14,535 nucleotides of DNA. Origin: a virus. Its lineage: Duplodnaviria; Heunggongvirae; Uroviricota; Caudoviricetes. Positions 1 to 13,320 of this stretch are shown here, piece by piece. The first letter of the stretch is position 1. Every line of letters begins with the position of its first letter. Position numbers and translations under genes: made by a program. Below the pieces are notes generated by a model. It did not search any database. It worked only from the letters and a program-made list of their open reading frames with translations, and was not told the origin of the DNA. Location of the stretch: positions 1 to 14,535 of the IMG/VR virus record IMGVR_UViG_2534681705_000018; one strand, written 5' to 3'.

Positions 1-78
1 ATAAATCTCACTCTCGTTTTTTTTGATATCAAAATCATCTGTTTCAAAATCTTCCTCGTACTCAAAATGATCAGCCAT
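1..78 (-). CDS. 5' end of an unknown protein-coding gene running off the left edge; N-terminus MADHFEYEEDFETDDFDIKKNESEIY is strongly acidic
   Basis: ATG at 78-76 (minus) with AGAGGAG Shine-Dalgarno 6-7 nt upstream; frame stays open to position 1. Too short for the ORF track, so this is my own read. Confidence 0.3.
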   Translation of the reverse strand, partial: MADHFEYEEDFETDDFDIKKNESEIY

Positions 79-318
79 TTTTAACTCCTCTGGATAAATT
101 AAATCACAAATTTTTGTATTATAAATAACCGCATAAGCCAAATTATTTGAGATTAATAAAACATCACCAACTTCAATATCAACAAGACTTCTGTAACATG
201 TTTTACTAAATCCAATTACAAAATGAATGGACCAATATAATGATTTTTTGTCTAACACTGGAGCGTTTCCGTATTGGCAGACTGTGACTTTATCTAACCA
301 AAGATTCAATTCCCCTGT

Positions 319-684
319 TCATATTCTTATTAGTGGTTGAGCAGGGCTCAATACTCCATCAAATACTTTACCTACGTGCAAACGATTATATTTTAGTTCA
401 GGATGCTTTAGATTTAACGGGGAACTGGATAAACTGAGCCATTCCCCTATTAACCTTTCCGTTTCTGGCATTAAAGCCATCCCAGCGAGCTCAGATGAAA
501 TTAAGGGAAATATTTCTCCAAGCAATACCCATCCAGACCAGCTGCCACTCTCTTCTGCTATCGGTAACCATTTAGCACTAAATTCGGGCATTAATAATGC
601 AACATCTTCGCCATTTTCTTTCCAATTTTGAAAAGTGGTTTCAAACGTATGAGTGTTTCGATTTACTTTCCTCAGACCGAACAT
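319..684 (-). CDS. hypothetical 121-aa Trp-rich protein
   Basis: ORF-track ORF; ATG at 684 with AAGGA about 11 nt upstream; protein-like composition; no recognisable motif. Confidence 0.45.
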   Translation of the reverse strand: MFGLRKVNRNTHTFETTFQNWKENGEDVALLMPEFSAKWLPIAEESGSWSGWVLLGEIFPLISSELAGMALMPETERLIGEWLSLSSSPLNLKHPELKYNRLHVGKVFDGVLSPAQPLIRI

Positions 685-815
685 TAACTTTCATCCTTCT
701 GATCGTTTTCGAATTTGCTTTCATTTTCTTGCTCCTCATAAGGCTGATGTCGTTGTCCTTGTCGTTCATCTTGCTCAGTCAATACCCAACGTTGTGCTGT
801 AACTCATTATGAAAA

Positions 816-2426
816 CTATTTAATTCCCTCATCATTGATAAGGTTGGACATCTCTTTCAACATGAGAGTCATTGAAGCTTTCGACCAATTTAGCGGAATG
901 ATAGGGCTTGGCGCTTCATGCAAAGTTCCCGACTTGTGGATATAGTTATAGCTTTCGGGAAGTGCCATTTCAGGTACACTCCTGCCATTTGCACCAATCA
1001 TATTCTCGCCTGTTATTTGGGCCAATGATCTATTCATAAATTGCACTGAGTCATTCAAATACTCTTCCTTTCTTGATTCTTTATAAACAATTGCTGCTGA
1101 TTTTGCATACCATGAGTCAAAAAACCATTCTGCTTCTGTTGATGGAATGAAGCTCTTTTCTCTTTTCGCATGTGAATTTTGATCGGTATCGGTTTTAATA
1201 TCATTGAACCAAAAATTTGCCGACTGATAATTATCCTTCTCGTATCTTTTTATACCATACGGACCTGCTAGTTTTTTAACTATTTTTAGAACCTGCTCTT
1301 TTCTTCTGGTGTTTATCTTTGCAAGATTTGCAGGATAAATAACATTAAGTAAAGCCGCATCGGCTTCTCTGTAATGTTTATCTTTTTCCAGATAACCTGG
1401 GGATTCTCCCCCTAAATCAAGCTGTAACGTTATTCTTTCATAACCTTTATCTATGAGGTGGTTCAACCTCGTTGTTGAAAGAGGTTCATCCAGTTCATTG
1501 GCTTTAGCTTCGCGTAGTAAATCAGAGACAAAAACAGAGTCTTTCTTCGAGAGTAAGTTCGACAAACGTTCCAGTCCAGAGGTCACCAGTGCAACGGAAG
1601 ATGTGTTTAATCGGGCATCTTCTTCCCATGCTCCGGAATCTTCCATAACATAGAAATTGGCTTTATCCAGATAAGCAATCAGCAGCGCAACCGATTTTAA
1701 TCGGTCACCTTTTTGCCAATCTTCAGCGTTAATTGTATCAGTGTCGATTGCTTGTATAAGGAGATCAAGATAAAGACCTAACGCATCATTTTGTTTATGG
1801 TTCCACAGCTGCGGCTTGCCTTCTTCCTGCACATCTGCCATCACGGGGGAGTTGCTGTCAAATCGGATATGCACAACATTCATTTGCCCGGGAACTCCAT
1901 CCAGTCGTTTGGGGTTGCTAATGACGTCCTGCATTCGCTTAATCTGGTCGGGCGTAGACATATAATCCCACAGGGTGAGCAGAACCTTTTTTGCGGCTAC
2001 ACTATTTCCCTGATCTGATACTAATGCCATATAGCCCCATAAACTATCCCTCAGCCAGACAGCATCATAGTGGGTTTCTGCCGCTGTTTTGTCATCTTCG
2101 AAAGTAGAAGCAAGAATAAACGTTCCCCAGGGTTTCTCCGTCAACGTTAACTTTCGTGTGTTTTCTGTTAATGTTAGCAATCCTTGAATTTCGTCTTTGG
2201 TATAGTGGCTCTTTATTTCATTTTGTAATTTGGCTGAGTGAATCAAAAGACGATAATTAGGATACTTATCTGGATTTAACGATAAATAACTTTTATCTGT
2301 TGCTGCCCCCGTGGAATTAAGAATGTTAAATACAGATTCACTCGTCACTTCTGCCCCTGTCGCCTGGCATGTGCCGCACGAAAATATACCAGCGAGCAGA
2401 AGAGTTAATGCAGATTTCCCTTTCAT
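816..2426 (-). CDS. secreted glycoside hydrolase family 15 (glucoamylase-like) enzyme with N-terminal signal peptide
   Basis: ORF 816..2468; likely start at MKGKSALTLLLAGIFSCGTCQATG (ATG 2426; alternative ATG 2438). Matches recalled GH15 signatures: VWLRDSLWG (WxRDS), GKPQLWNHKQNDALG (GxPQ...D.AL) and SGAWEED (general-acid WEE). AT-rich gene unlike the rest of the window. Confidence 0.7.
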   Translation of the reverse strand: MKGKSALTLLLAGIFSCGTCQATGAEVTSESVFNILNSTGAATDKSYLSLNPDKYPNYRLLIHSAKLQNEIKSHYTKDEIQGLLTLTENTRKLTLTEKPWGTFILASTFEDDKTAAETHYDAVWLRDSLWGYMALVSDQGNSVAAKKVLLTLWDYMSTPDQIKRMQDVISNPKRLDGVPGQMNVVHIRFDSNSPVMADVQEEGKPQLWNHKQNDALGLYLDLLIQAIDTDTINAEDWQKGDRLKSVALLIAYLDKANFYVMEDSGAWEEDARLNTSSVALVTSGLERLSNLLSKKDSVFVSDLLREAKANELDEPLSTTRLNHLIDKGYERITLQLDLGGESPGYLEKDKHYREADAALLNVIYPANLAKINTRRKEQVLKIVKKLAGPYGIKRYEKDNYQSANFWFNDIKTDTDQNSHAKREKSFIPSTEAEWFFDSWYAKSAAIVYKESRKEEYLNDSVQFMNRSLAQITGENMIGANGRSVPEMALPESYNYIHKSGTLHEAPSPIIPLNWSKASMTLMLKEMSNLINDEGIK

Positions 2427-2734
2427 AAAATATTCCATCAATCGTTTGTTAAAAGCGTAGATAACCACTTATTTAACAACTTGAAAATAAGGTGTTTTAC
2501 CTGGGTTGTTACAAAAGGATTGCATTGCGTAAACGCTTTTTATTTACAACAAAATGGGGAAGTATTACGGCGATTGCGAAAAGTCTGAAGCGATTGAATT
2601 AAGATAATATAGAAAATCAGATACAGCAAAAATGGCAGATTGATCAGGTGAAGATAAATTGGAGCGGCGAAGGGAACAACACAACAAGCCACAAGACCAG
2701 TAATAAAGGCGCATTCGCGAGTTCTAAAATAAAT

Positions 2735-2758
2735 TCTATACACATTTCTATACACATT
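2735..2758. repeat. perfect tandem direct repeat TCTATACACATT x2
   Basis: Read directly at 2735-2746 and 2747-2758. Confidence 0.8.
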
Positions 2759-2770
2759 TATCACTCGCTT

Positions 2771-2850
2771 GGGGATTACACATCCCCTGTTAACCGTGAT
2801 CAAGCTGGTGGATGATCACGGATAAACCGATATGGGAATCCCCATATCGG
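2771..2850. promoter_or_regulatory. three consecutive perfect dyad symmetries: GGGGAT-N5-ATCCCC (2771-2787), CCGTGATCA-N10-TGATCACGG (2794-2821), CCGATATGGG-N4-CCCATATCGG (2827-2850)
   Basis: Inverted repeats read directly; non-coding; sits where composition changes from AT-rich cargo to element-like DNA. Confidence 0.6.
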
Positions 2851-2855
2851 CATCG

Positions 2856-2967
2856 CGTAGTTAATCGTAGTGGCTACCGTAGTAGCCTCCGTAGTTGAGT
2901 AGCAGGATGTAACCTGCCAGGAAGGAAATGATCGTGACTCGCCGTGACATGGCGTGATTAATCGTGA
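2856..2967. repeat. helically phased short direct repeats: CGTAGT x4 (2856, 2866, 2878, 2890) with embedded palindrome GGCTAC-cgta-GTAGCC, then CGTGA x4 at exact 10-bp spacing (2933, 2943, 2953, 2963)
   Basis: Read directly; the 10-12 bp phasing puts the motifs on one face of the helix, typical of multimeric protein-binding sites (integrase arm sites, TerS sites, iterons). Confidence 0.6.
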
Positions 2968-3000
2968 CACCAAACAAAAATCCTTACCCGTAGGCTTAAT

Positions 3001-3023
3001 GTAAGGCTTGGCTGTAGCCTTAC
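3001..3023. other. perfect 8-bp inverted repeat GTAAGGCT-N7-AGCCTTAC
   Basis: Read directly. Confidence 0.6.
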
Positions 3024-3035
3024 CGAACGCGCCGC

Positions 3036-3215
3036 TCACCGTCGCGGCCTGTCCGGTTTCCGCCACTGATACGGCCTCACATCATCATGCTGGTGGCGCT
3101 CCTGTTGCAGCACAACGGAAACAGGCGCTGAACACCTGTTAATTTTGCTTGCTGGTTGTTTGATTCCGGCAATGCTGCGGATCATCTCCAGCAAATCGGC
3201 TTCGGTGATGGTCAT
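3036..3215 (-). CDS. possible small ORF (59 aa, MTITEADLLEMIRSIAGIKQ...), unknown function
   Basis: ATG at 3215 with AAGGTG 7 nt upstream; stop at 3036-3038; not in the ORF track (under 60 aa); low support. Confidence 0.25.
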   Translation of the reverse strand: MTITEADLLEMIRSIAGIKQPASKINRCSAPVSVVLQQERHQHDDVRPYQWRKPDRPRR

Positions 3216-3245
3216 GATTTACACCTTAGGAAATCTTAGGGGGCT

Positions 3246-3518
3246 GGTTGACACTTTCCGGCTTAAGACCTTAATAAATCTTAATATCGTAGGTTGACAC
3301 ACTTGACACTTTTTCGGGAAAAACCTTAACAAAACTTAACCATCCCTGGCATTTCTAAGCATGGCAACTTGACACTTTTCGCTATTTTTTCGGCTTTTTG
3401 ACGTGGTAAATCTGGCGAAAGGCCAGTAATGGCGTGGCTTACAGCGAGGTTGACACTTTTTCGCGTTCAGAGTGTAAAGTGTCAACCTGGCAAGCTGCTC
3501 AACTTGACACTTTTTGAG
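3246..3518. repeat. array of six direct copies (one inverted) of about 14 bp, (G/C)TTGACACTTTT(T)CG
   Basis: TTGACAC at 3248, 3294, 3303, 3369, 3450, 3504 and inverted GTGTCAA at 3479; non-coding, directly 3' of the HTH gene at 3520-4047. Confidence 0.7.
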
Positions 3519-3519
3519 G

Positions 3520-4047
3520 TCATTGATGGCCTGATTTTTCCCACTCAGCCAGGGCGTTTAGTCCGGCTTCACTCCAGTTATCCAGCTCATCGGGACAATC
3601 ACCTGCAACATAGCAGAGCTCACAACGCAGCATACGAATTGCCAGCCTGGCATTTTCCCGAAAATCATACTGCTCAAAGTAATATTGCCCAGCATAATCC
3701 TCAAGGCAGATAGCACCATCATCAAGAAATTGCACTTCACAGCATAATTCCCCGGCTGCATCCTGCACACGCTGCTGTATGTCATCGTCCGTTACTGGTG
3801 CAGGGATTTTACCGTCTCTGGCCTTAACTGCTTTCCAGAACTCGCCCCACGTCATTTCCAGCGTTCTCTCTGGCCACATTTCAGAAACGGGGTTTTTTCC
3901 CTGTGCTGGTGGGCTGTTCCGCTGCTCTGTCGCTTCCACATCAATTTTTTTGCCAGACATGATCACTTCGCCTTTCTCGATCCAGTCGTAAACTGTCTGG
4001 CGGCTTACGCCTTTGTGTTTGGCATATTCTGCCTTGCTCATCAGCAT
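3520..4047 (-). CDS. HTH DNA-binding protein, 175 aa; N-terminus resembles lambda Nu1/terminase-small-subunit winged HTH; Cys-rich C-terminus; candidate packaging-redirecting or regulatory protein
   Basis: N-terminal KAEYAKHKGVSRQTVYDWIEKGE parallels recalled Nu1 KKQLADIFGASIRTIQNWQEQGMPV; C-terminal RCELCYVAGDC; ATG 4047 (or 4041) follows the upstream stop by 6 nt with GGGTGAG Shine-Dalgarno. Confidence 0.6.
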   Translation of the reverse strand: MLMSKAEYAKHKGVSRQTVYDWIEKGEVIMSGKKIDVEATEQRNSPPAQGKNPVSEMWPERTLEMTWGEFWKAVKARDGKIPAPVTDDDIQQRVQDAAGELCCEVQFLDDGAICLEDYAGQYYFEQYDFRENARLAIRMLRCELCYVAGDCPDELDNWSEAGLNALAEWEKSGHQ

Positions 4048-4053
4048 TATGAC

Positions 4054-4725
4054 TCACCCTTCTTTTTCCAGTTGAGCCAGCCGCCCGGATATTTCTTCCA
4101 GTTTTTCCAGGGCTGGCTTGCAGGCCGCATCAATAACATCCCGGACCATTCCGGCAAGCTGCTCTTCTGCTGTCGGCGTTGTTACTTCCACACCCGATGG
4201 TTTCCCTCCCTTATCCCATACACCCAGCGGTACGAGGGCAACGTGATCGATAAGAAATGGCGTACCCTCAATGACAAAATTGTCCTCGCCCATTACATCA
4301 GGAACTTCTGCCCCACCGGACGCACCACAAAACACAACCGACGGGCTGGTGGATACCTCCCCCCGGGCTTTCTGGATGTAATCGATGATTTCCTGCCCGT
4401 AAATCCGGCATACGCCCCACACCTCGTCATCGCGAATATACGGCAACATAACGGTGCCAATAATGCGCGACCGTTCGCCCACGTCTTCAATGGTTTTGCC
4501 TTCGGGATGGTCGATAATGACGGGTACTCCGGCGCAACGTTCCAGGAACTGCGGATTGAGATAAGTTTGCGGTGAACGCCAGACAAATTCTTTTTCTTCG
4601 GCGCGGTAGGCCATTCCGGTTCCTGTGATACGCAGGTTAACCAGCCACATGTTGGAGAACTGATAAGGCGACGGTAGCTGACCGTCCCGAATCTGCTTCG
4701 CCGCCTCAATTTCTGTTAAAAGCAT
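4054..4725 (-). CDS. hypothetical 223-aa protein with coiled-coil C-terminus
   Basis: ORF-track ORF; same operon and strand as neighbours; no motif recognised. Confidence 0.55.
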   Translation of the reverse strand: MLLTEIEAAKQIRDGQLPSPYQFSNMWLVNLRITGTGMAYRAEEKEFVWRSPQTYLNPQFLERCAGVPVIIDHPEGKTIEDVGERSRIIGTVMLPYIRDDEVWGVCRIYGQEIIDYIQKARGEVSTSPSVVFCGASGGAEVPDVMGEDNFVIEGTPFLIDHVALVPLGVWDKGGKPSGVEVTTPTAEEQLAGMVRDVIDAACKPALEKLEEISGRLAQLEKEG

Positions 4726-4789
4726 AATGTTATCCGGTTATAAGCAATAAGCCCCGCCAAATCCGGCAGGGCTGAACTCAGCACGTTTT

Positions 4790-5368
4790 TCATGCCCCCG
4801 CGAGGCTTGCAGTGTTAATTTTGACCAGGCGACGGGGAGGGATTTTGAAGGCGTTCAGCCAGACGTTCGGATCGCCCTGATATTCAGTAATACGACGACC
4901 AGCTTCATCCATTCTTACGGTTTTACCCAAATGGCCCGGCGTGTTTTCCACGGCCCACTGAGCACTTTCCTGAGCAGCCTTGTAAATCTGATCTTCCAGC
5001 ACCGCCAGCGTTGCAGAATCTGAAACGGAACGAATATCCACATCACTGAATTTTTTAGCCAGCTTCTGTGCGCCAATTAATGCACGCTTGCGGTAATCCA
5101 TCGACTTTTCACCAGCAAACGGGGCCGGAGCTCGACGGCCCATATTGCTGTATGCGGAATCCGCTTTAGCCTGGGCTTCTGCCAGTGAGGATTCATCTTC
5201 GACTGACGCGACGATGTTTTGATTAGCGTTATCCTCTTTTATGAAATCCTGTGCGGGGATCGCATTCAGAATTTCGATAATCTCCTGCGGAGTGCTGCCC
5301 TGCGACTCTGACAGAGCGTTAACCACCTCCATCAGTTTTAATCGCAAATCTTCTTTGCTTGCTGGCAT
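4790..5368 (-). CDS. hypothetical 192-aa protein
   Basis: ORF 4790..5377 opens on GTG; in-frame ATG at 5368 has a better Shine-Dalgarno (GAGAGGTGG). Confidence 0.55.
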   Translation of the reverse strand: MPASKEDLRLKLMEVVNALSESQGSTPQEIIEILNAIPAQDFIKEDNANQNIVASVEDESSLAEAQAKADSAYSNMGRRAPAPFAGEKSMDYRKRALIGAQKLAKKFSDVDIRSVSDSATLAVLEDQIYKAAQESAQWAVENTPGHLGKTVRMDEAGRRITEYQGDPNVWLNAFKIPPRRLVKINTASLAGA

Positions 5369-5407
5369 TTTTACCACCTCTCTTTTTTCACCAAAAAATC
5401 ACGACCA

Positions 5408-5587
5408 TCAGGCCGGACGTTCTACGGGATAAAGCGCCCGCTGCATTAAACGCCGGGCGACCTCATGAATGCTCGGAGCAATCCCCAGCGGAGAATTGCG
5501 GCGTTCCTCGTCCTGGATGCGCTGTAATGCTTCAATCTGATCACGAGCGAGTAAAACGGGTTTCACGCTGGCTTTTCTCATAGTCAT
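5408..5587 (-). CDS. small 59-aa protein (MTMRKASVKPVLLARDQIEALQRI...), possible small DNA-binding regulator
   Basis: ATG at 5587 with AGGAGA Shine-Dalgarno; first gene after the tandem terminators; assignment is tentative. Confidence 0.45.
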   Translation of the reverse strand: MTMRKASVKPVLLARDQIEALQRIQDEERRNSPLGIAPSIHEVARRLMQRALYPVERPA

Positions 5588-5605
5588 ATCTCCTGAACAA
5601 AACAA

Positions 5606-5700
5606 TGATTATGATTGCACAAACTGAAATGACGATCTACATCGTTGCAATTTATGAAACGATAACGCATGATGATCGCGTTCTTCCCATTGACTTCAAT
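5606..5700 (-). promoter_or_regulatory. promoter/operator region for the 5587->3520 operon with repeated ACGAT/ATCGT dyads and a CATAAT -10-like hexamer
   Basis: Between terminators and the first gene of the next operon; dyads GACGATctacATCGT and AACGC-N8-GCGTT read directly. Confidence 0.4.
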
Positions 5701-5704
5701 CACC

Positions 5705-5745
5705 TGAAAAACAAAGCCCGCAACACTTCTGGCTGCGGGCTTTTT
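5705..5745 (-). terminator. second, bidirectional intrinsic terminator
   Basis: 8-bp stem AGCCCGCA/TGCGGGCT (5715-5722, 5734-5741), 11-nt loop, T-runs on both sides. Confidence 0.6.
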
Positions 5746-5753
5746 ACTGGCAC

Positions 5754-5777
5754 AAAAAAGCCGGGAAAAATCCCGGC
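5754..5777 (-). terminator. Rho-independent terminator right after the PerC-like gene
   Basis: 7-bp GC stem GCCGGGA/TCCCGGC with 4-nt loop, followed on the minus strand by a 6-T run. Confidence 0.7.
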
Positions 5778-5782
5778 CTCCG

Positions 5783-6070
5783 TCACTGACTGCAATTTTT
5801 CGATCCAGGGTATTTCCTGAATGCCTTACCATTGGGCTGATGTAATCCCATCCCGGCATGTGCCCGGCTGATGGTTTCGCGCATCTCCCCGAAATTATCC
5901 TGCCGTGCTGGTGGGCGTGCTGCCTTGCGGATACATTCCGCGCGACGTTTTGCCGCCTGTTCCCGTGCCTTGTCATCATTCGCCAGCATGATGACCTCAG
6001 CCCACCGCGCCGCCGCTCTCCGGTACAGACCACGCGCTTCCAGTGCTTCCGCTTTGCTGTCGTGAATCAT
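5783..6070 (-). CDS. PerC/Pch-family transcriptional activator-like protein (95 aa)
   Basis: AEALEARGLYRRAAARWAEVIM matches the recalled PerC-family core (AEELE.KGLWRRAAARWLEVM); ATGA start/stop overlap with the upstream gene. Confidence 0.55.
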   Translation of the reverse strand: MIHDSKAEALEARGLYRRAAARWAEVIMLANDDKAREQAAKRRAECIRKAARPPARQDNFGEMRETISRAHAGMGLHQPNGKAFRKYPGSKNCSQ

Positions 6071-6609
6071 GCGCCTGTTTTCTCCCTGGCTGCCCGGCGC
6101 TGACGTTTGCGCTTCTCATTCAGCGCTACCAGCCGCGTTTCTGCGTCCTGTTGTTCCTGTGGTGTCACCTCGCCGCACGGCTGGCCTTTCAGGTCGTAGC
6201 GTACCCCACCAGCCATTAAGGCGCGGTAATAGCGCGGACACTGCGCATAAGATGCCAGCGTCGCACGTAATGCCCCTGGCCCGAATGCCAGCCCCCTGAC
6301 GGCGAGATCCTGCATCAGGTCGTCGAATATCCCCACCTTAAGCGGCTTCGGTGCTTCCCGGCTGAATAATTCAGGCCACAACTCAGTGAGGCGGTTAACG
6401 CGCCTGCGGTTTTTGCGCTGGCGCTTGGTCATATGCCGCCACGGTGTCGCCCCTGTGGGCTTCTGCTGCGCTTTCTGGTTACCGGGCATCACTTTATGCG
6501 CCGACGTGGTTTTATCCTGCTCCTGTGCCGCCTGCGTCGTTTTCTGCGGCGTGCCATAAATGCCTTTCGGTTTTCTGTTAATGGTCAGCTTAGTCATGCT
6601 TTGCCCCAT
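6067..6609 (-). CDS. ProQ/FinO-domain RNA-binding protein with a basic N-terminal extension
   Basis: LTELWPELFSREAPKPLKVGIFDDLMQDL ... YYRALMAGGVRYDLKGQPCGEVTPQEQQDAETRL parallels recalled ProQ N-terminal domain ([22 protein letters not shown] ... RVDLDGNPCGEL); likely true start ATG 6597. Confidence 0.65.
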   Translation of the reverse strand: MGQSMTKLTINRKPKGIYGTPQKTTQAAQEQDKTTSAHKVMPGNQKAQQKPTGATPWRHMTKRQRKNRRRVNRLTELWPELFSREAPKPLKVGIFDDLMQDLAVRGLAFGPGALRATLASYAQCPRYYRALMAGGVRYDLKGQPCGEVTPQEQQDAETRLVALNEKRKRQRRAAREKTGA

Positions 6610-6937
6610 CGTTTTTACTGATTATTTCATGCCCGGAACTTTCATCTACCGGATACCACGCAAATGATCCAGGTTCATCAGAAAGAATGAATTTTGTGTT
6701 TGGCAAATACATGCATTCGTAAAAACCATCTTCCTGATGATACGGTGCCATTCCATACTCACCAGTAAGAATCGGTAATATTTCAGAATAAATTTCTGAA
6801 TCACCAGAATAAAACACATCACAAATCGCCCATGCTGCAATCGGACTATACCAGTCGTTGCCATTATCATTCCTGAATTTTGCCCACCAACCCTGAACCG
6901 CTGGCGAAATATTTTTGGGTATAGCTTCAAGAAACAT
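6590..6937 (-). CDS. hypothetical 115-aa Trp/Tyr-rich protein, first gene of the ProQ/PerC operon
   Basis: ATG 6937 with strong AAGGGGG Shine-Dalgarno; 3' end overlaps ProQ-like start. Confidence 0.55.
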   Translation of the reverse strand: MFLEAIPKNISPAVQGWWAKFRNDNGNDWYSPIAAWAICDVFYSGDSEIYSEILPILTGEYGMAPYHQEDGFYECMYLPNTKFILSDEPGSFAWYPVDESSGHEIISKNDGAKHD

Positions 6938-6987
6938 ACAACCCCCTTTGCAACTCTATTTCTATAATTTCGTGATAAAAATTCCAA

Positions 6988-7290
6988 TTATTCACACTAT
7001 TCCATTTTGATTGTGAACAGTCGTGAATAGTTAGTGAACAGTTTTTTAATAACTGTTCACTATGTTTTTTAGTTTAAAATCATATGGTTATTTTGTTTCA
7101 GTGAACAGTTGAACAGTTACCCCCTATAGAATTTAATTTGCAGTGAAAATGATTCACTGTTACAAGTTACAATGCGTTTTAAAAGTTTTAGCCGAAACTG
7201 TTCACGGCGTTCATTTCGTCGATGAATCCAGTAATGACGCAGCTTTTAGAGGTGAACACTACTGTTCACCACTGTTCACCACTGTTCACT
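6988..7290. repeat. replication-origin-like iteron region: about 10 direct and inverted TGTTCAC(C) copies, an AT-rich spacer, and a perfect tandem ACTGTTCACC x3
   Basis: Direct copies at 7054, 7199, 7263, 7273, 7283; inverted at 7013, 7034, 7101, 7252; palindrome TAGTGAACAGTT/AACTGTTCACTA (7032-7062). TGTTCACC is the P4 alpha-protein type I iteron as I recall; location just 3' of the primase gene. Confidence 0.65.
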
Positions 7291-9058
7291 TTTCATGGAT
7301 TTTTGGCACAGCGGGTAACCATTCATTAGCACTGTCAGCCAGCTCCATGTTGTAGCGCATTCCGACATTGGTCTTTGCCTTCTTATACTCAGCCCCATAT
7401 TCTTTCATCACTTTTGGGAAATCTTTGCCAAAATTAGTTAGATTTAATGGCTTATCGAAACCATAAGCATCCATATATGCAAGATATGCATGGTAAAGAT
7501 AAATTCGAGGGGCTCTTGGATATATATTCAGGTTTCCCATGAACATTCCTACAGCTTCACCAAGTTCGACAATATGGTTACAAAAAGCATATAGCGGATC
7601 AGTATGGCGTTTTACTTCCATTGCTTCTTCACCATCACGTTGCTCGAGCAGTAATGTTCTTGCTTTTTCGGGATCTGAAAAATTTACCAACAGCCTACGG
7701 ACTATTACCGGAATTTCCGCTGCAATTTTTTTGGGTAAACATGTGTCCTTGTTTTCTTCCGCTATCGGATTATTGAACTGAAAAATAACCCTACGGCGTG
7801 AAATACCTCCCGCTCTTTCTGTAAAAACCATCGGTTTATTATTTGTTATCAAAACAACTGAGCGTAAGACAGTGGTGTATCTTTTTTCATATTTCGGGTT
7901 AATTTGCAGAGGATCCCCACCTGTTATAGCTTTAATACCATTACCTTCACCAAAATATTTAGGTTGGTCCGGTAAAATAATCAGACTTTTACCAACTAGT
8001 TGCTCACGTCCACCAGCATCATCTAACGCTTTCATATCACTGCCTGCGGTGTTCTGCTCACCCGCCAACATTCTGGCAATTTGAGTAAACATACTTTTAC
8101 CACTTCCACCTTCGCCAGTTGCTTCAATGAATAATTGCCAGTCGTAGCGATTAGCCAAAACCATAAACAGAGCAGCACATATCCGCTTCATCTTTGATGA
8201 ATCGTATCCTGCTGCATGTGACAGCCAACGATGAAAATGGGGCGCATGGTCATGAATATTTTCACCAGGCGCAGGTGGCGTATAATAAATTCCATTATGC
8301 GAAGTGATCCAGTGCTCTGGTGAATGAGGTAAAAATCTACCACTTGTTATGTCATAAACTCCATTTTCAAAAGGTATTATGGTGTCACTCTGTTCTCTCA
8401 TTACGGGTACAGATATTTTTAAAGCATCAACCGCATTACTAATTGCCCGCTTACTGAAATTTGTCTTGTTTTTTTCGTAAATTGATACCATTTTACGACT
8501 CAACTCCATATCAGATATTTTTTCCCACACTCCAGAACAGTATGCATAAGCAAAATTGTTACCAGGGTGAACAGCTATTTCCTCAAAGCATTCAGCCAAA
8601 AGTGAAGCTCGCTCGTTATCCGCCATTCTGGAAAGAGAGATTTTGTGTTTTTTCTCAGTCCTTCCTGACAGAATATCCCCGCGCTCTGCCTGTTCGCGGA
8701 TCCGTTGCAGGTAATCGCGCCAGTTCTCCGGTTCCCGGTCGGTGATGCCTTTGTATAATTTCGCCTCCTGTACGCCAGCCAGCGCCAGCTTTTCAGCGAT
8801 AGCATTGATCTGGATTGGTTCGATCTCCCCCGCGAGATAGACACGCGCAAAGCGGCGTTTCTCGTCAATAATGCGGATATTCGCCAGGTCTGCCAGTTGC
8901 TTTGGCCCCAGGTAAACAGGTGGTACGTTATCGCCGTGTTTTCGTCCTTCGCTTTCAATCCAGTGTTGAGCATGGGAGTAAGCGTCCGTCCCGGCAAAAA
9001 TGATTACCTCGGTGAATTTATCCTTCGGCTGATATTTTAAATTCGGTGCGTTTTTCAC
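7286..9058 (-). CDS. P4-family primase / D5-like SF3 helicase replication protein (590 aa)
   Basis: Walker A GEGGSGKS in mid-protein; overall organisation of phage/plasmid primase family; GTG start at 9058 overlaps upstream stop (GTGA). Confidence 0.8.
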   Translation of the reverse strand: MKNAPNLKYQPKDKFTEVIIFAGTDAYSHAQHWIESEGRKHGDNVPPVYLGPKQLADLANIRIIDEKRRFARVYLAGEIEPIQINAIAEKLALAGVQEAKLYKGITDREPENWRDYLQRIREQAERGDILSGRTEKKHKISLSRMADNERASLLAECFEEIAVHPGNNFAYAYCSGVWEKISDMELSRKMVSIYEKNKTNFSKRAISNAVDALKISVPVMREQSDTIIPFENGVYDITSGRFLPHSPEHWITSHNGIYYTPPAPGENIHDHAPHFHRWLSHAAGYDSSKMKRICAALFMVLANRYDWQLFIEATGEGGSGKSMFTQIARMLAGEQNTAGSDMKALDDAGGREQLVGKSLIILPDQPKYFGEGNGIKAITGGDPLQINPKYEKRYTTVLRSVVLITNNKPMVFTERAGGISRRRVIFQFNNPIAEENKDTCLPKKIAAEIPVIVRRLLVNFSDPEKARTLLLEQRDGEEAMEVKRHTDPLYAFCNHIVELGEAVGMFMGNLNIYPRAPRIYLYHAYLAYMDAYGFDKPLNLTNFGKDFPKVMKEYGAEYKKAKTNVGMRYNMELADSANEWLPAVPKIHEK

Positions 9059-9345
9059 TTCTTACCTCCCGCAACCAACATTGCCCGGATTTTTTTAATA
9101 TTCGTGGCTGCACGTCTCGCCACCGCCTGTTGTTTGTTTTCCACCAGAATAAAATCACGCTCAAACTGACGGCGCGGCATTACGCAGTCATATTCGTAAG
9201 CCTCACGGCGGTAGGTGATATTGCCTGGCGTAACGTGACGAATAACCACTCGTCCCCCACGTCTGGTGTCGCGGTAAATATCTCCGTGTCTGATTTCAGG
9301 CCGAGCGGGGCCGCTGGCAGTAAAGCCAGAATTTTTCTTTTTCAT
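9055..9345 (-). CDS. hypothetical 96-aa basic protein, coupled to the primase gene
   Basis: ATG 9345 with AGGAAA upstream; stop overlaps primase start. Confidence 0.5.
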   Translation of the reverse strand: MKKKNSGFTASGPARPEIRHGDIYRDTRRGGRVVIRHVTPGNITYRREAYEYDCVMPRRQFERDFILVENKQQAVARRAATNIKKIRAMLVAGGKK

Positions 9346-9349
9346 GGTT

Positions 9350-9550
9350 TTATTTTCCTGTCAGCAGTTCCGGTTTTATTTCCGCACGAATACAGAGTTC
9401 AGAAAAAAATTCAGGAGAACCAACAATCTCATTACTTTTCAGTCGGCATTGTGATTTCACTTTTCCTTTATCCAGGTAAACCAGTATGCGTCCGGTGAAA
9501 TCATCTGGCGCACTCAGGGTAATTGTCATTGTTGCTTGCTGATTATCCAT
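9350..9550 (-). CDS. small 66-aa protein with one copy of an FTGxxLVxxxxGxV motif; paralog of the gene at 9543-9908
   Basis: PDDFTGRILVYLDKGKV; start overlaps upstream stop by 8 nt. Confidence 0.5.
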   Translation of the reverse strand: MDNQQATMTITLSAPDDFTGRILVYLDKGKVKSQCRLKSNEIVGSPEFFSELCIRAEIKPELLTGK

Positions 9551-9908
9551 GATTCACCCCCTGAATAACCTGATAACCGCAACTGGTCAGCAATTCGATA
9601 AATTCCGGCAATGTGCCGAAACAGTAATCATCACGCAGACGTTCGCGGGATACTTCAACGCCGTTTTCGTAGTGACTCACCATGCGTCCGGTAAAATGCA
9701 GATCATCATCGTGATGGCACGTTAACGGCTTAATCAGTCGCGCACGTTCTGCCAGTTCCAGCAATGCTTCAACGCTTCCGGCAATTGCACCATCCGGCAG
9801 GTTGTAATTACGCACTATGCGCCCGTTCTCCACATGGACCAGTAGCTGCCCGGTAAATTTCTCGTCAAACTGAATGCGGTTAAGGTCGGTAAGTGACAGG
9901 TTAATCAT
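9543..9908 (-). CDS. 121-aa protein carrying two tandem copies of the same small domain
   Basis: FDEKFTGQLLVHVENGRIV and LHFTGRMVSHYENGVEV; ATG 9908 overlaps upstream stop. Confidence 0.55.
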   Translation of the reverse strand: MINLSLTDLNRIQFDEKFTGQLLVHVENGRIVRNYNLPDGAIAGSVEALLELAERARLIKPLTCHHDDDLHFTGRMVSHYENGVEVSRERLRDDYCFGTLPEFIELLTSCGYQVIQGVNHG

Positions 9909-10104
9909 GGCGTACCTCCTGACGAATACGGGCGGCGAATACCATCACGCAGCCATCAGGAGATTGCTGGCGTGCTTCCTGTTCGCTGGTGGCCTCGATG
10001 TGAATCACGCGCGGTTGTGCCGTGCTCAGAGCGATAAAACGCCAGATGTATTTATTCAGGTTGTGCGAGTCCCGCCCTTGCGGGTGTGTGGTATGATTTC
10101 TCAT
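9901..10104 (-). CDS. small 67-aa protein, first gene of the leftward operon; tentatively Icd/Kil-like
   Basis: ATG 10104 with GAGGT Shine-Dalgarno; IWRFIALSTAQ...VMVFAARIRQEV resembles my recollection of Icd-like proteins (unverified); in frame with the C-terminus of the 402-aa track ORF. Confidence 0.4.
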   Translation of the reverse strand: MRNHTTHPQGRDSHNLNKYIWRFIALSTAQPRVIHIEATSEQEARQQSPDGCVMVFAARIRQEVRHD

Positions 10105-10297
10105 AGCTACCTCGATAATCTTGCTATCGTTGGTGGTTAGAAGCTCTGCGAGTGGTAACGACACTTGCGGGGCTTTGCCTTTAAGGTGCAAGTCACCTTT
10201 GAGGGTTATGCTACTTTTAGGTGACTTGCACTTCAAGCCTTTTTTTATTTTTTTTTCTACGTATACTGAACGCCACCTAACAGTAAGGAGGCCAGTA
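10105..10297. promoter_or_regulatory. divergent promoter/operator region with 13-bp inverted repeat AGGTGCAAGTCACCT (10184-10198) / AGGTGACTTGCAC (10219-10231) and a T-rich tract (10241-10257)
   Basis: Read directly; lies between the leftward operon and a rightward gene with AAGGAGG Shine-Dalgarno; candidate -35/-10 (TTGAAG-N17-TAGCAT) on the minus strand overlaps the repeat. Confidence 0.55.
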
Positions 10298-10477
10298 ATG
10301 CCAACGGGTACAACCAACAACAAATCACAACAAAAAACGGCTAGAATCCCTCTAGAAGTTTTAAGCGAAATGAATTTGGTCAAAGAGGAAAACGAAACAG
10401 ACGCGCAGTTTATCGTTACAGCCATGCGTGGCGAGATCAAACGCCGCCAGCGCCGCAAGGCCAAAGAACAGGAGTAA
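10298..10477 (+). CDS. small 59-aa basic protein, possibly ribbon-helix-helix-like; candidate element repressor
   Basis: Near-consensus Shine-Dalgarno AAGGAGG 6 nt before ATG 10298; strand-helix-helix pattern (ARIPLEV / LSEMNLVKEEN / AQFIVTAMRGEIKRR); only clear plus-strand gene in the element. Confidence 0.5.
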   Translation: MPTGTTNNKSQQKTARIPLEVLSEMNLVKEENETDAQFIVTAMRGEIKRRQRRKAKEQE

Positions 10478-10534
10478 CCATCACCAGCGCCGTGGTGTGA
10501 GGAACTACGGTGCATCGTTTTACAGGGCAGCGCC

Positions 10535-10714
10535 ATGACCAACAAAGAATCAACCAAAACACCATCACCAACTCGTAAGAGACGACGCAAAAATATAGCG
10601 CATGAACATGAATCAGAAAGATTCGCACCTTGTTCGTTTGCTCTTGAGAAATTCCTTAAAGAGCACAGGAAAAAGCTCTCGTTGCAAACCTTGGAACGAA
10701 CCAAATCTGACTGA
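10535..10714 (+). CDS. possible 59-aa Lys/Arg-rich ORF downstream of the RHH-like gene
   Basis: ATG 10535, weak Shine-Dalgarno; followed by a plus-strand terminator; not in ORF track. Confidence 0.3.
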   Translation: MTNKESTKTPSPTRKRRRKNIAHEHESERFAPCSFALEKFLKEHRKKLSLQTLERTKSD

Positions 10715-11109
10715 TCACATTGCCCACCAGCCGCAAATGTGGCATTGTTGGTGATGCGTTCAAGTATGTAGCTTTTCCACTGGCGGCTCTCTGCGGTCGC
10801 CTTTGTTTTATCCAGAACGAAATCAGACATCAGATTGATCAGCACCTGGCGACCTGACAAAATCGCATCAGTCGCGCCACCAGCAAAATTTTTTGCTTTC
10901 CGGACAGCGTGGCCAACGATATTTTGCAGCAAAATATTCTGCATTTCTGGCGTGCTGTGGCGACGGTGATCAGCGCCTTCACATTGAACGAACTTGTCGC
11001 TAAAATTCACCCACATAGCAAACATCGCGGTGCTGTAGGTAATTCGTTCACAAAGGCGCTCCGGCAACGGGGCGCTTTCTCTTTTTGTAACGGTCAGAGC
11101 GTTACACAT
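10715..11109 (-). CDS. N-terminal part of the 402-aa track ORF (9901..11109); plausible gene of unknown function whose true 3' end is unresolved
   Basis: ATG 11109 overlaps the AntA stop (ATGTGTAA); first ~130 residues protein-like, but the middle of the 402-aa frame looks non-coding and is antisense to the plus-strand module. Confidence 0.3.
10782..10809 (+). terminator. candidate Rho-independent terminator for the rightward transcript
   Basis: GGCGGC-tctctgc-GGTCGCC stem-loop followed by TTTGTTTT. Confidence 0.4.
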
Positions 11110-11950
11110 GGCTGTTTTCCTCCATGCGACGGGCTAACCAACGCTGCGAAAGACGAATTAATTCAGCCTTCCGCTGGTGGTAGTCCTGGCCTAACTCAAT
11201 CAGCGTGATATTGCTCTGCTCAAGGTAAGAAAGGTGCTCAAGCTGCAACGTGCTCATGTGGTCGCGTGGTTCGCCTGTAATGCCGTTCGCCAGTGCCCAC
11301 TGTTTTGCAGTCATGCCACCCAGCACGATACGCGCCAGCATGTTCGCTTCCGTGGTGTAGTGGTGCTGGAGTGTGTTTTTACCCAGTTCAGCCCGGTACG
11401 CCTCCAGCGCGGCACACATTGGCTTAAAGTAGCTGGCAACTGTGATACGGGCTTTCAGTTCCCGGCGTAACGCTGCGGAACGCACTGGCGCTACCTTGTG
11501 TAGCTCCTCCTCGCATTTGATAAAGTACTGGCGAACGGCGCGGCCCTGTTCGGTACGTTCGACCATCGCCAGTTCTTTCGCCATGTTCGTGGAGATCAAA
11601 TAGTCTTCACTGCGACGATCACCGCCGCGCTTTGTTGTCCAATCAAAATCAAACTGTTCAATATTTACACTTTGGTTCCCCCGTTTCGGGGAATCAAAGT
11701 ACAAATTTTCTACAACTTCAAAATCCACGCCATTTTTAAATCCGTACTCATCAATACGTCCTTTAATCCAGGTAGTGAAATCACGGCCTACCCCGAGCGC
11801 CTTATGCAACGCTCTGGCGCTAACAATATTGGTTTCACGCCCGCCAATAACGCCGGAAATAACCGGGATAATTTCGCCAAAATTTTGCAGATTCTGGTTT
11901 TCAGGCCGAACGAAGCCCTGCCCCTGTACGGGCGTTTTTCGCAGTTTCAT
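11102..11950 (-). CDS. phage antirepressor, AntA/AntB-type N-terminal domain (282 aa)
   Basis: IPVISGVIGGRETNIVSARALHKALGVGRDFTTWIKGRIDEYGF matches recalled AntA domain pattern; AGGAG Shine-Dalgarno before ATG 11950. Confidence 0.7.
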   Translation of the reverse strand: MKLRKTPVQGQGFVRPENQNLQNFGEIIPVISGVIGGRETNIVSARALHKALGVGRDFTTWIKGRIDEYGFKNGVDFEVVENLYFDSPKRGNQSVNIEQFDFDWTTKRGGDRRSEDYLISTNMAKELAMVERTEQGRAVRQYFIKCEEELHKVAPVRSAALRRELKARITVASYFKPMCAALEAYRAELGKNTLQHHYTTEANMLARIVLGGMTAKQWALANGITGEPRDHMSTLQLEHLSYLEQSNITLIELGQDYHQRKAELIRLSQRWLARRMEENSHV

Positions 11951-12028
11951 AAAAACTCCTGCTATCGAATTAAGTTACTTTTATTTGCTGGTGGATAGCT
12001 GGGGGCTTCTGGCCCCGTAGCCATTTAA

Positions 12029-12226
12029 TCAGGTAGCTGTTCCGCGTGATTCAGCAATACGCTGATTAATCCACTCGTCAATTTCACTCTCAACGAAAGC
12101 AATCGCTCGCGAGCCAATTTTAACTGATGCAGGAAATTTACCTTGCCCCATAAGGCGATAAATCCATGCCTTGCTATATCCAGTTCTACGCTGAACTTCC
12201 GTTAAACGAATAAGCGTATTTGACAT
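12029..12226 (-). CDS. alpA: AlpA/Vis-family phage transcriptional regulator or excisionase-like HTH protein (65 aa)
   Basis: IRLTEVQRRTGYSKAWIYRLMGQGKFPASVKIGSRAIAFVESEIDEWI is the typical AlpA-family winged HTH; GAGGT Shine-Dalgarno; family-level assignment only. Confidence 0.8.
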   Translation of the reverse strand: MSNTLIRLTEVQRRTGYSKAWIYRLMGQGKFPASVKIGSRAIAFVESEIDEWINQRIAESRGTAT

Positions 12227-12294
12227 ATATTTACCTCATAACGTCTACTCAATTTGACGAGGTAATCATGGCACAGAAATAACGAATATTTTCA

Positions 12295-12444
12295 TACCCT
12301 CAGGCCTAATGGTAATCGGGAATATTTTTACCCTAAGGGTAATAGTAAAATTGATGGGAAAGCATACAAAAATACCCTAAGGGTGAGGTCTGATTACCCT
12401 TAGGGTGAGACGCGAACAAAACATGAGATACCACTAGGGTAAGG
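12295..12444. promoter_or_regulatory. array of five copies of palindromic motif TACCCT(A/T)AGGGT(A/G) immediately upstream of alpA
   Basis: Copies at 12295 (degenerate), 12328-12343, 12373-12385, 12394-12410, 12429-12444; each an inverted repeat TTACCC-N3-GGGTAA. Confidence 0.7.
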
Positions 12445-12446
12445 CT

Positions 12447-13193
12447 TCATCGTTTGATAGGACAGGCGACAAGCTCAATAGATGCGGCCTGTCGGGAGGT
12501 AAAACCTCGTTTTTCAAGCTCAGTAGTAATCGCGCCCTGGTTTCCCCTGGTGGCGCGCTCATTTTCCGGATCGTAATTGGCCCACTCTCTGTTTCTAATC
12601 TCGATAGCCAGATACAATGGGTCATCATCTCTGTATTTATTTAATAGAATTGGACGTTCGCTTTCGAGTTTGCGGATTTGCTCTTTAAGTGAAGAAATTT
12701 CCGCAAGTAACACTTCAATATTCTGTTCATCATCCAGAAACTCATTATCAACCACATCAGAAGTTGGTAGAGTTATTTCACTTAATGGTAAAAATAAATC
12801 AATGCCTATTTTCTCTGCAAATTCTTTAAGTTCTGCACGACGAAACCCATGCTTATCAAAAAGGCTTGCCGACCATCTTACATCACAATTTTGAAAAGGT
12901 GCGAATAATGCTATAGGCACACTATTTCTTTCACGAATAACTTCCAGGAGGTCTGTTAAAGTAGGGGCACTATTATATTGATTGGAAAGATCGACATATG
13001 TTGATTCAATAGTACCGGCAATACCTTGCTTAACCCATTCAGGAAGTTCAATCGCACATTCTTTCAAGTAAAGAAAATCTGCAATCTGTGAATAACTAAC
13101 ATGCGGTTGATGTAATTGAATACGAGTTATCAACTCCCTCAGGCTAATAAACTCCCACTCCCTTGCTTTAAGCACTTCGGCAATATCAATCAT
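12447..13193 (-). CDS. hypothetical 248-aa protein between integrase and alpA, coiled-coil near C-terminus
   Basis: Track ORF 12447..13274 opens on GTG; ATG 13193 has GAGGTG Shine-Dalgarno 7 nt upstream; no motif recognised. Confidence 0.55.
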   Translation of the reverse strand: MIDIAEVLKAREWEFISLRELITRIQLHQPHVSYSQIADFLYLKECAIELPEWVKQGIAGTIESTYVDLSNQYNSAPTLTDLLEVIRERNSVPIALFAPFQNCDVRWSASLFDKHGFRRAELKEFAEKIGIDLFLPLSEITLPTSDVVDNEFLDDEQNIEVLLAEISSLKEQIRKLESERPILLNKYRDDDPLYLAIEIRNREWANYDPENERATRGNQGAITTELEKRGFTSRQAASIELVACPIKR

Positions 13194-13320
13194 ACGCACA
13201 CCTCGGCGTCCTCTGTAGTGGTGGCTGTGCCAGCCCGCAGAGGTGTACGGGTTTTCAGGAGCGACCCTAGACACAGCCTTTTCTTAATCGCTCAAAGTCT
13301 ACTACTGTATACTCAACCAG

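Follow-up and report, generated by a model that had tools for sequence, protein, structure and literature searches.

The DNA analysed here, a stretch of 14,535 nucleotides that we call the window (positions 1 to 14,535 of IMG/VR virus record IMGVR_UViG_2534681705_000018), carries a gene for a 175-amino-acid (aa) protein, HTH175, followed directly by an array of short repeats. Going by its gene content, the element that holds them is an Escherichia coli phage-inducible chromosomal island (PICI) of the EcCICFT073 lineage, integrated at a tRNA-Gly gene. We give about an even chance to the proposal that HTH175 and the array form a packaging-specificity module similar to that of Rpp, which this Gram-negative PICI would use with a helper phage other than lambda. 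The proposal rests on synteny with the rpp gene and cos sites of EcCICFT073, on a head domain of the type found in Rpp and in small terminase subunits (TerS), on the strict coupling of the protein to its sites, and on the lack of any other packaging determinant in the island.

An array of two interleaved motifs follows the HTH175 gene

A preliminary description of this DNA had reported a 175-aa open reading frame (ORF) next to seven copies of a 14-bp repeat, six direct and one inverted. The ORF is real, and it opens with an ATG (Table 1). The copy number and orientations also stand, but for a shorter core: TTGACAC occurs seven times in the whole window, always inside a 263-bp segment (3248-3510), with six direct copies and one inverted copy (3479-3485). 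By chance, 1.76 copies would be expected, and 0 of 200 shuffles reached seven. Two TTTACAC variants (3220-3226 on the plus strand and 3472-3478 on the minus strand) raise the array to nine sites. The size of 14 bp was wrong. The exact 14-mer, TTGACACTTTTTCG, is present just twice (3303 and 3450), and if up to 3 mismatches are allowed, its five matches on the plus strand are weakly over chance (mean 2.06; 5 of 200 shuffles reach five). From 116 distinct sites of related loci we derived a position matrix, in which the motif is asymmetric and about 12 bp long, R-S-T-T-K-A-C-A-C-T-T-T (RSTTKACACTTT). The sites in the window are in mixed orientation and are 9-81 bp apart.

A second motif, CTTAR-N5-CTTAR, which the preliminary description missed, is interleaved with the first. 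Its three copies in the window all lie at 3225-3339 (0.12 expected; 0 of 200 shuffles reach three), and the end-most copy abuts the ribosome-binding site (RBS) of a 59-aa ORF. The 59-aa protein has a conserved C-terminal pattern, P-x-(Y/W)-x-W-(R/K/Q)-K-P-x-x-R-R (with P..W.KP..RR invariant in the alignment), and it might be the partner for this second motif; PerC, the TerS of the helper, and host factors are further candidates. We found no match to the IHF consensus in the window. An RNA element was also considered and was rejected because there was no Rfam match at E ≤ 1.

The protein and the motif are found together across Enterobacterales

We compared loci from Klebsiella, Pantoea, Serratia, Enterobacter, and Citrobacter, as well as 79 IMG/VR loci, 73 of which include sequence downstream of the gene. 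All 73 of these contain TTKACAC within 340-400 bp after the HTH gene (1-9 copies), as compared to 0-5 copies in the remaining 4-20 kb of each locus. An HTH175-type protein and the motif were found together in every related locus that we examined. As for CTTAR-N5-CTTAR, in 40 related loci it occurs 52 times in the 18 kb downstream of the gene versus 3 times in 550 kb elsewhere, which is a several-hundred-fold enrichment (these counts include overlapping matches on both strands). The number, spacing, and orientation of the sites differ by lineage, and a doublet with 9-bp spacing recurs. Between E. coli and a subfamily with about 40% identity, both the recognition helix and the motif show essentially no change.

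The gene and its array form a unit that occurs across Escherichia, Citrobacter, Klebsiella, Enterobacter, Pantoea, Serratia, Yersinia, and relatives, and the motif is kept across islands with different integrases and different attachment (att) sites. The late genes that precede the unit vary with the lineage and its likely helper: E. coli has scaffold-like genes there, whereas Klebsiella, Pantoea, and Serratia have Dit-like, baseplate hub, and Apex genes. (Homologues of baseplate or Dit proteins seem to be unusual in satellites.) The unit itself (about 100 protein clusters) is constant: it is always the last part of the late block and marks the border from the hijack genes to a hotspot for defence genes or other cargo. 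The subfamily at about 40% identity keeps this arrangement, as in locus L069, where the unit lies after a lambda tail-I-like gene and before an AIPR abortive-infection gene. In locus L016, inserted cargo separates the small ORF from the array, which remains attached to the HTH gene. In Klebsiella locus L002, a different gene follows the array. We also considered whether the ends of IMG/VR metagenome contigs could be packaging termini, but they did not agree with one another (L041 ends about 340 nt past the gene, and L025 ends 11 nt before it).

In relatives, defence-type cargo after the array and the small ORF includes SEFIR/TIR (L015, 8794-10230), AIPR (L069, 11036-12796), and an HTH protein with an M78 peptidase (L006, 10648-11733). 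This slot behaves like the defence hotspots that are known for P4 and other satellites.

Two loci from Klebsiella pneumoniae, L002 and L003 (1-16516), encode an identical HTH protein next to different late modules (Dit-like, baseplate hub, and Apex proteins in L002; two uncharacterised proteins in L003). Both islands adjoin a prophage remnant, which starts with a DUF5681 gene (L002) or a truncated major capsid gene (L003) and continues with connector, sheath, tube, and tape-measure genes. This arrangement looks like the "helper-embedded PICI" configuration (PMC10111431).

HTH175 has a nearly invariant head and a family-restricted C-terminal domain

HTH175 consists of a winged helix-turn-helix (HTH) domain (aa 1-45), a disordered linker (approximately aa 46-58), and an alpha/beta C-terminal domain (aa 61-170). 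Conservation is 82% for the first 41 residues, 19% for the linker, and 47% for the C-terminal domain, and V14, S15, R16, Q17, and Y20 of the head are invariant in the family. The family comprises 104 clusters, every one of which is annotated as hypothetical, and all of them are from Enterobacterales. (Two homologues from Pantoea carry the label "Repressor" in the source databases, with the basis unstated.) A tblastn search of 50,697 phage records found no homologues.

The preliminary description had called the head Nu1-like. At the level of the fold, and for the first 42 residues, this is borne out: HTH175 matches PHROG 57 (TerS) with E = 3.9e-7 over residues 1-42, the matches to PHROG 57 and PHROG 3218 are confined to residues 1-44, and a model of the N-terminal domain shows the winged-HTH fold that is seen in lambda TerS and RppC. 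It does not extend to membership in a Pfam terminase family. The top Pfam match is HTH_17, below the family threshold, and the closest structural matches of the head are Xis/BldC/AlpA-type proteins (HTH_17, MerR-like). A BLASTP comparison to RppA from strain CFT073 aligns 25 aa of the HTH only (36% identity, pairwise E = 0.001) and sets R16-Q17 of HTH175 opposite R21-T22 of RppA. R21 and T22 lie in the recognition helix of Rpp and are needed for packaging specificity (Fillol-Salom et al., 2019, PMC6739421).

As for the C-terminal domain, an exhaustive phmmer search of 1.84 billion representatives identified 18 proteins. Because nearly all of these are of the size expected for the family (about 50-185 aa, with a single exception of 837 aa), the search linked the domain to no phage protein. 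The C-terminus was also described as Cys-rich, which is true of this sequence (it has six cysteines) but is not a feature of the family: across 43 sequences, C145 recurs in 29, C151 in 13, and the others in 1-4. As the cysteines are not conserved, they define no metal site, and we rejected that possibility.

In terms of its context, HTH175 does not resemble a TerS: its neighbours are the DUF2213 gene and the small ORF, and there is no adjacent terL. It has no detectable full-length homology to RppA, RppB, or RppC. It does share with the Rpp proteins an N-terminal winged HTH with the fold of lambda TerS, and its gene lies in a Gram-negative PICI after the origin or the late genes and, by synteny with EcCICFT073, beside an inferred packaging site.

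HTH175 and the array occupy the position of rppA and cos

Using tblastn, we identified counterparts in the window for the EcCICFT073 integrase (26% identity), AlpA (36%), Icd (94%), DUF4222 (52%), primase (55%), and PerC (53%) proteins and for the terminal small ORF. The capsid, decoration, and RppA proteins of EcCICFT073 were not found in the window by tblastn. Instead of the EcCICFT073 capsid genes, RppA, and lambda-type cos, the window has scaffold-like genes of the Rac-SA53 type, HTH175, and the array. In CFT073, rppA (144 aa) is the last late gene and is followed by a conserved small ORF, and rppA is flanked by two copies of lambda cosN (in the EcCICFT073 locus, L097, at 2559-2570 on the plus strand and 3298-3309 on the minus strand), within a 77-nt inverted repeat. 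In the window, HTH175 is the last late gene and the array fills the gap to the same conserved small ORF (BLASTP E = 2e-6 against the 93-aa ORF after rppA). A small ORF after the array or packaging region is common to EcCICFT073 and all of the lineages that we examined, including Klebsiella, Pantoea, and Serratia.

Rpp binds the TerS of the helper, blocks packaging of the phage, and directs packaging to the cosB of the PICI, and both Rpp and the cosB of cos1 have been shown by experiment to be required for packaging of the PICI (PMC6739421). Thus, by synteny with rppA and cos, HTH175 and the array occupy the slot of a proven packaging module. We believe that they are probably the functional counterpart of Rpp and cosB in EcCICFT073. 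Searches with Pfam, PHROG, and cos sequences identified no other TerS-like gene and no known cos site in the island.

EcCICFT073 also has four dispersed TAACCCGTTGATATTTTCG repeats and variants between the small ORF and the end of the island (L097 3653-3820), at distances of 48-54 bp. They bear a loose likeness to the GTTGACACTTTTTCG sites in the window and belong to neither cos site.

A probable helper phage

The two genes before HTH175 encode the DUF2213 protein and a 195-aa protein, which match the N-terminal half and the C-terminal part of one phage gene family (PHROG 6216). As both ORFs (4054-5377) match a single 430-aa gene of Rac-SA53, a phage head gene is split in two in the island. 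In Rac-SA53, Chronis, and PdC23-type phages, the corresponding scaffold/protease-like gene has the portal/MuF-like genes on one side and the major capsid gene on the other, and the split gene probably serves capsid assembly or the redirection of capsid size. These phages encode a TerS of the Terminase_2 or PHROG 370 type; in Rac-SA53, TerS is ALP46876.1 and TerL is ALP46869.1. Of 5426 complete E. coli genomes, 88 contain Rac-SA53-like head genes, and so do at least 4 of the best 15 PICI-bearing genomes, where about 0.24 would be expected. Also, five source genomes in IMG/VR hold both the PICI and Rac-SA53-like head genes. Strains JNU, A17, 52F4, and PapRG-04-4 are examples of hosts that have the island together with a Rac-SA53-like prophage. 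The helper of this island is probably a Rac-SA53-type phage.

How HTH175 might redirect packaging

We infer DNA binding, contact with a terminase, initiation of packaging, and interference for HTH175, and we propose that these fit together as follows. Once a helper induces the island, HTH175 would be made from the last gene of the late operon. The nearly invariant winged HTH would bind the roughly nine asymmetric RSTTKACACTTT sites directly 3' of its own gene, and a factor that recognises the interleaved CTTAR-N5-CTTAR elements would probably bind alongside it. This joint binding would build a nucleoprotein mark on replicated island DNA. The variable and family-restricted C-terminal domain, on its flexible linker, would contact the terminase of the helper (TerS or TerL). 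This contact would lead packaging to begin on the DNA of the island, and packaging of the helper might be inhibited at the same time.

An extension of this proposal, which we put forward tentatively and with more doubt than confidence, is that HTH175 is a modular "universal adaptor." The invariant head and the private RSTTKACACTTT array, as a packaging signal, would stay fixed throughout a whole lineage of PICIs, and the C-terminal domain would evolve so as to engage helper terminases that are unrelated to one another, among them headful enzymes of the Terminase_2 type. If so, a single satellite protein that is not homologous to TerS would create a pac site de novo for different families of helpers, making it the first mechanism of this sort in Gram-negative bacteria for helpers of the pac type.

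Evidence against a packaging role and alternative explanations

Several results weigh against a role in packaging. No Pfam terminase family (TerS or Phage_Nu1) matches HTH175 at E ≤ 0.1, and a comparison to PDB sequences, including RppC (6hn7_A), gave no match to Rpp with phmmer at E ≤ 1 or with family-profile hmmsearch at E ≤ 10. HTH175 lacks the C-terminal three-helix dimerisation domain of Rpp, with its long coiled-coil helix, and has an alpha/beta domain there. Excisionases and MerR-like regulators share the fold of the head just as much. We identified no cosN or pac cleavage site, and the window contains neither a match to lambda cosN with up to 2 mismatches nor the P2 cos. The array and its flanks have no blastn match in phages, and the terS regions of Rac-SA53, Chronis, and PdC23 share no meaningful 12-mers with the array and contain no TTKACAC cluster. 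The lack of array likeness near phage terS would be explained if, as for Rpp, the recognition site is private to the satellite. For the same reason, no site of cleavage could be identified. The island EcCIMP1 does not need the AlpA-like gene at its far end in order to be packaged (PMC11773190). Lastly, the DNA-binding head is constant while the presumed helpers are very different, and this could just as well reflect a function that does not depend on the helper, such as regulation. Nevertheless, the hijacking of helper packaging by a TerS-like protein with cognate sites, as first suggested, is the best-supported reading, given the indirect evidence of the synteny with EcCICFT073, the fold, and the co-occurrence of protein and motif. 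By sequence, HTH175 is neither a TerS nor an Rpp, and a cos or pac site of cleavage was not found.

If HTH175 is instead a transcription factor (a repressor or an activator), then the array would be a multi-operator for the control of the small ORF and of the hotspot that holds cargo or defence genes, and neither would take part in packaging. We consider this unlikely, although it is the main rival and a credible one; the preliminary description had also mentioned a regulator-binding array as a possibility. HTH_17/Xis/AlpA/MerR/BldC-type heads are typical of regulators, BldC-like proteins bind arrays of direct repeats, and the array is directly upstream of the small ORF, with the last CTTAR element at the RBS. 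Also, defence-type cargo comes next in relatives (TIR/SEFIR in L015, AIPR in L069, and M78-HTH in L006), two Pantoea homologues are labelled as repressors (on an unstated basis), and the constancy of the head and the motif across presumably different helpers would suit a helper-independent role. However, promoter prediction gives none of the sigma-70 type for the array, whichever strand is read, and nine sites across 300 bp with a second interleaved motif would be unusual for an operator. Furthermore, the array remains with the HTH gene when cargo separates it from the small ORF (L016), and in Klebsiella L002 another gene comes after the array. A regulatory role would leave the fast-evolving, family-restricted C-terminal domain unexplained, and the syntenic region of EcCICFT073 is a packaging site. 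The fold of the head would also fit a recombination directionality factor (RDF, or excisionase), with the repeats as architectural sites in an att arm. This seems improbable because the array begins about 540 bp from the probable att core (2660-2677), because relatives have kilobases of cargo between the array and the end of the island, and because the motif is conserved across islands that differ in their integrase and att site. At 175 aa, HTH175 is about three times the size of Xis, the island already has AlpA next to int, and better-placed candidate sites lie nearer to att (four CGTGAY at 2933-2968 and two CTATACAC at 2734-2759).

It is very improbable that the array serves replication or partition of the island after excision, either as a set of iterons for which HTH175 is the initiator or as a centromere to which HTH175 binds. 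There is a separate origin of the classical kind beside the primase gene, with about 11 P4-like GTGAACAGT iterons and 31-38% GC, which argues that the TTGACAC array is not the origin. The features of an iteron origin were found there (7010-7290) and not at 3218-3517, where the array is not AT-rich (GC content of 0.44-0.46), and the island encodes no ParA-like or Rep-like partner. Finally, the motif includes TTGACA, and the 14-mer as first written is weakly above chance, so the repeats might be a compositional accident or a bank of -35-like hexamers without a cognate protein (the preliminary description had mentioned such a bank). We consider this to be excluded by the clustering and the conservation: no shuffle in 200 reaches the seven core copies that lie within 263 bp, and all 73 loci, which come from different genera, carry the motif downstream of the gene. 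The -35 bank also fails because, on both strands of the array, every TTGACA lacks a -10 element that it could use as a partner.

Other features of the island

The element has the characteristics of a Gram-negative PICI, namely an integrase, AlpA, a primase with an adjacent origin, co-oriented late genes, a length of about 12 kb, and site-specific integration. All of the island's genes are on the minus strand. From the integrase end, their order is integrase, AlpA-like HTH, AntA/B protein, Icd-like peptide, DUF4222, primase, ProQ/FinO protein, PerC, 195-aa protein, DUF2213 protein, HTH175, the array, and the 59-aa ORF (Table 1). A 402-aa ORF that was listed at 9901-11109 is probably spurious: in this region, annotated relatives have the Icd-like peptide (about 9913-10104, 94% identical to that of EcCICFT073) and, on the opposite strand, genes of the YlcI/YnfO family.

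Table 1. Features of the island in the window
Feature	Position	Strand	Remarks
Probable att repeat (island end)	2660-2677		TGGAGCGGCGAAGGGAAC, an imperfect copy of the tRNA-Gly 3' end
Conserved small ORF, 59 aa	3036-3215	minus	Starts right after the array
Repeat array	3218-3517	both	Nine RSTTKACACTTT sites interleaved with CTTAR-N5-CTTAR
RSTTKACACTTT cores	3220, 3248, 3294, 3303, 3369, 3450, 3504	plus	
RSTTKACACTTT cores	3472-3478, 3479-3485	minus	
CTTAR-N5-CTTAR elements (three)	3225-3239, 3270-3284, 3325-3339	plus	
Half-inverted CTTAR variant	~3344-3360		
HTH175 gene, 175-aa two-domain protein	3520-4047	minus	ATG start
DUF2213 protein, 223 aa	4054-4725	minus	Pfam DUF2213, PHROG 6216/530; 53% identity to Rac-SA53 (tblastn)
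195-aa protein	4790-5377	minus	PHROG 6216 positions 409-545; 67% identity to Rac-SA53 (blastn)
PerC-family activator	5783-6070	minus	Backbone gene, 53% identity to EcCICFT073; upstream of the late/hijack genes
Island replication origin	7010-7290		~11 GTGAACAGT/ACTGTTCAC iterons in both orientations, just downstream of the primase gene
D5/P4-alpha-type primase-helicase, 590 aa	7286-9058	minus	55% identical to the EcCICFT073 primase
AlpA-like HTH	12029-12226	minus	
Integrase	13321-14535	minus	

The origin is AT-rich (GC content of 0.31-0.38), and its final three iterons are at 10-bp spacing and overlap the region of the primase stop codon. These iterons resemble the TGTTCACC repeats of the phage P4 ori/crr.

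In a near-identical island from strain ETEC1747, the integrase gene abuts tRNA-Gly. As the other end of the island is probably at 2660-2677, the GH15 gene (816-2468) would lie outside of it. About 255 bp inside this probable att repeat are four CGTGAY repeats with exact 10-bp phasing (2933-2968), which are unique in the window (0.01 expected); it is plausible that they are a binding platform for AlpA/RDF or for the integrase. Two tandem copies of TTCTATACACAT at 2734-2759 have counterparts beside the integrase in locus L001 and may be arm-type sites. A palindrome, CCGATATGGGAATCCCCATATCGG, at 2827-2850 has a counterpart near the end of EcCICFT073 (L097 3976-3997). Beyond the end of the island, the DNA at 1-808 matches part of the ETT2 region of ETEC1747, which encodes type III secretion (YscQ and needle-length genes). 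In ETEC1747 the counterpart of 1-808 is about 3.7 kb further from the GH15 gene, which implies a deletion in the ETT2 flank of this genome.

Implications

Many Gram-negative PICIs lack a recognisable packaging module, and this is stated for EcCIMP1 itself (PMC11773190). In the searchable literature, we found no description of the HTH175 family or of the array. It is a known concept that a satellite protein can redirect the helper's packaging to a private site, and HTH175 with its array would be a structurally distinct version of this, for non-lambda helpers. If the unit is a packaging determinant, then the principle of Rpp extends beyond lambda-like cos helpers, the gene together with a RSTTKACACTTT array would be a simple signature for annotating such satellites, and the two would provide a compact cis/trans pair for engineering satellite-based delivery of DNA. 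If HTH175 instead regulates the defence hotspot, then this would be a new link between the induction of satellites and the expression of anti-phage cargo.

Comparison with known systems

Lambda gpNu1 also has a winged-HTH head and also has several short, asymmetric sites of mixed orientation, tens of bp apart, beside its own gene (R3-R2-R1 of cosB, following the outline of cosB in PMC6739421). In contrast, HTH175 has no Phage_Nu1 match in Pfam, no adjacent terL or cosN, and an unrelated C-terminal domain, and its array is downstream of the gene rather than upstream. In the pac-type PICIs of Gram-positive bacteria, a TerS encoded by the Staphylococcus aureus pathogenicity island (SaPI) directs the headful terminase of the helper to satellite DNA (as summarised in PMC6739421). 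This is a satellite-encoded specificity factor, as we propose for HTH175, but the SaPI protein is a true TerS homologue, whereas HTH175 has only a 42-residue HTH match to PHROG 57. The Xis/BldC/AlpA-type proteins (HTH_17, MerR-like) are the best structural matches to the head of HTH175 and bind direct repeats. However, they are single domains of 50-80 aa that act at att sites or promoters, while HTH175 has an additional domain of 115 aa and sites that are far from att.

The remaining comparison is to Rpp and the cosB of cos1 from EcCICFT073 (Fillol-Salom et al., 2019, PMC6739421). HTH175 has no detectable full-length homology to Rpp, and its family-restricted alpha/beta domain takes the place of the three-helix coiled-coil dimeriser. 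Its DNA is a 300-bp array of about nine sites without a lambda cosQ or cosN, and its presumed helper has a Terminase_2-type TerS instead of Nu1. On the other hand, both systems are built on the same backbone, with the protein encoded by the last late gene before a conserved small ORF. Both proteins have an N-terminal winged HTH with a fold like that of lambda TerS, in which Arg16 of HTH175 is opposite the functionally required R21, and HTH175 is, like Rpp, specific to satellites, being absent from the sequenced phages that we searched (50,697 records).

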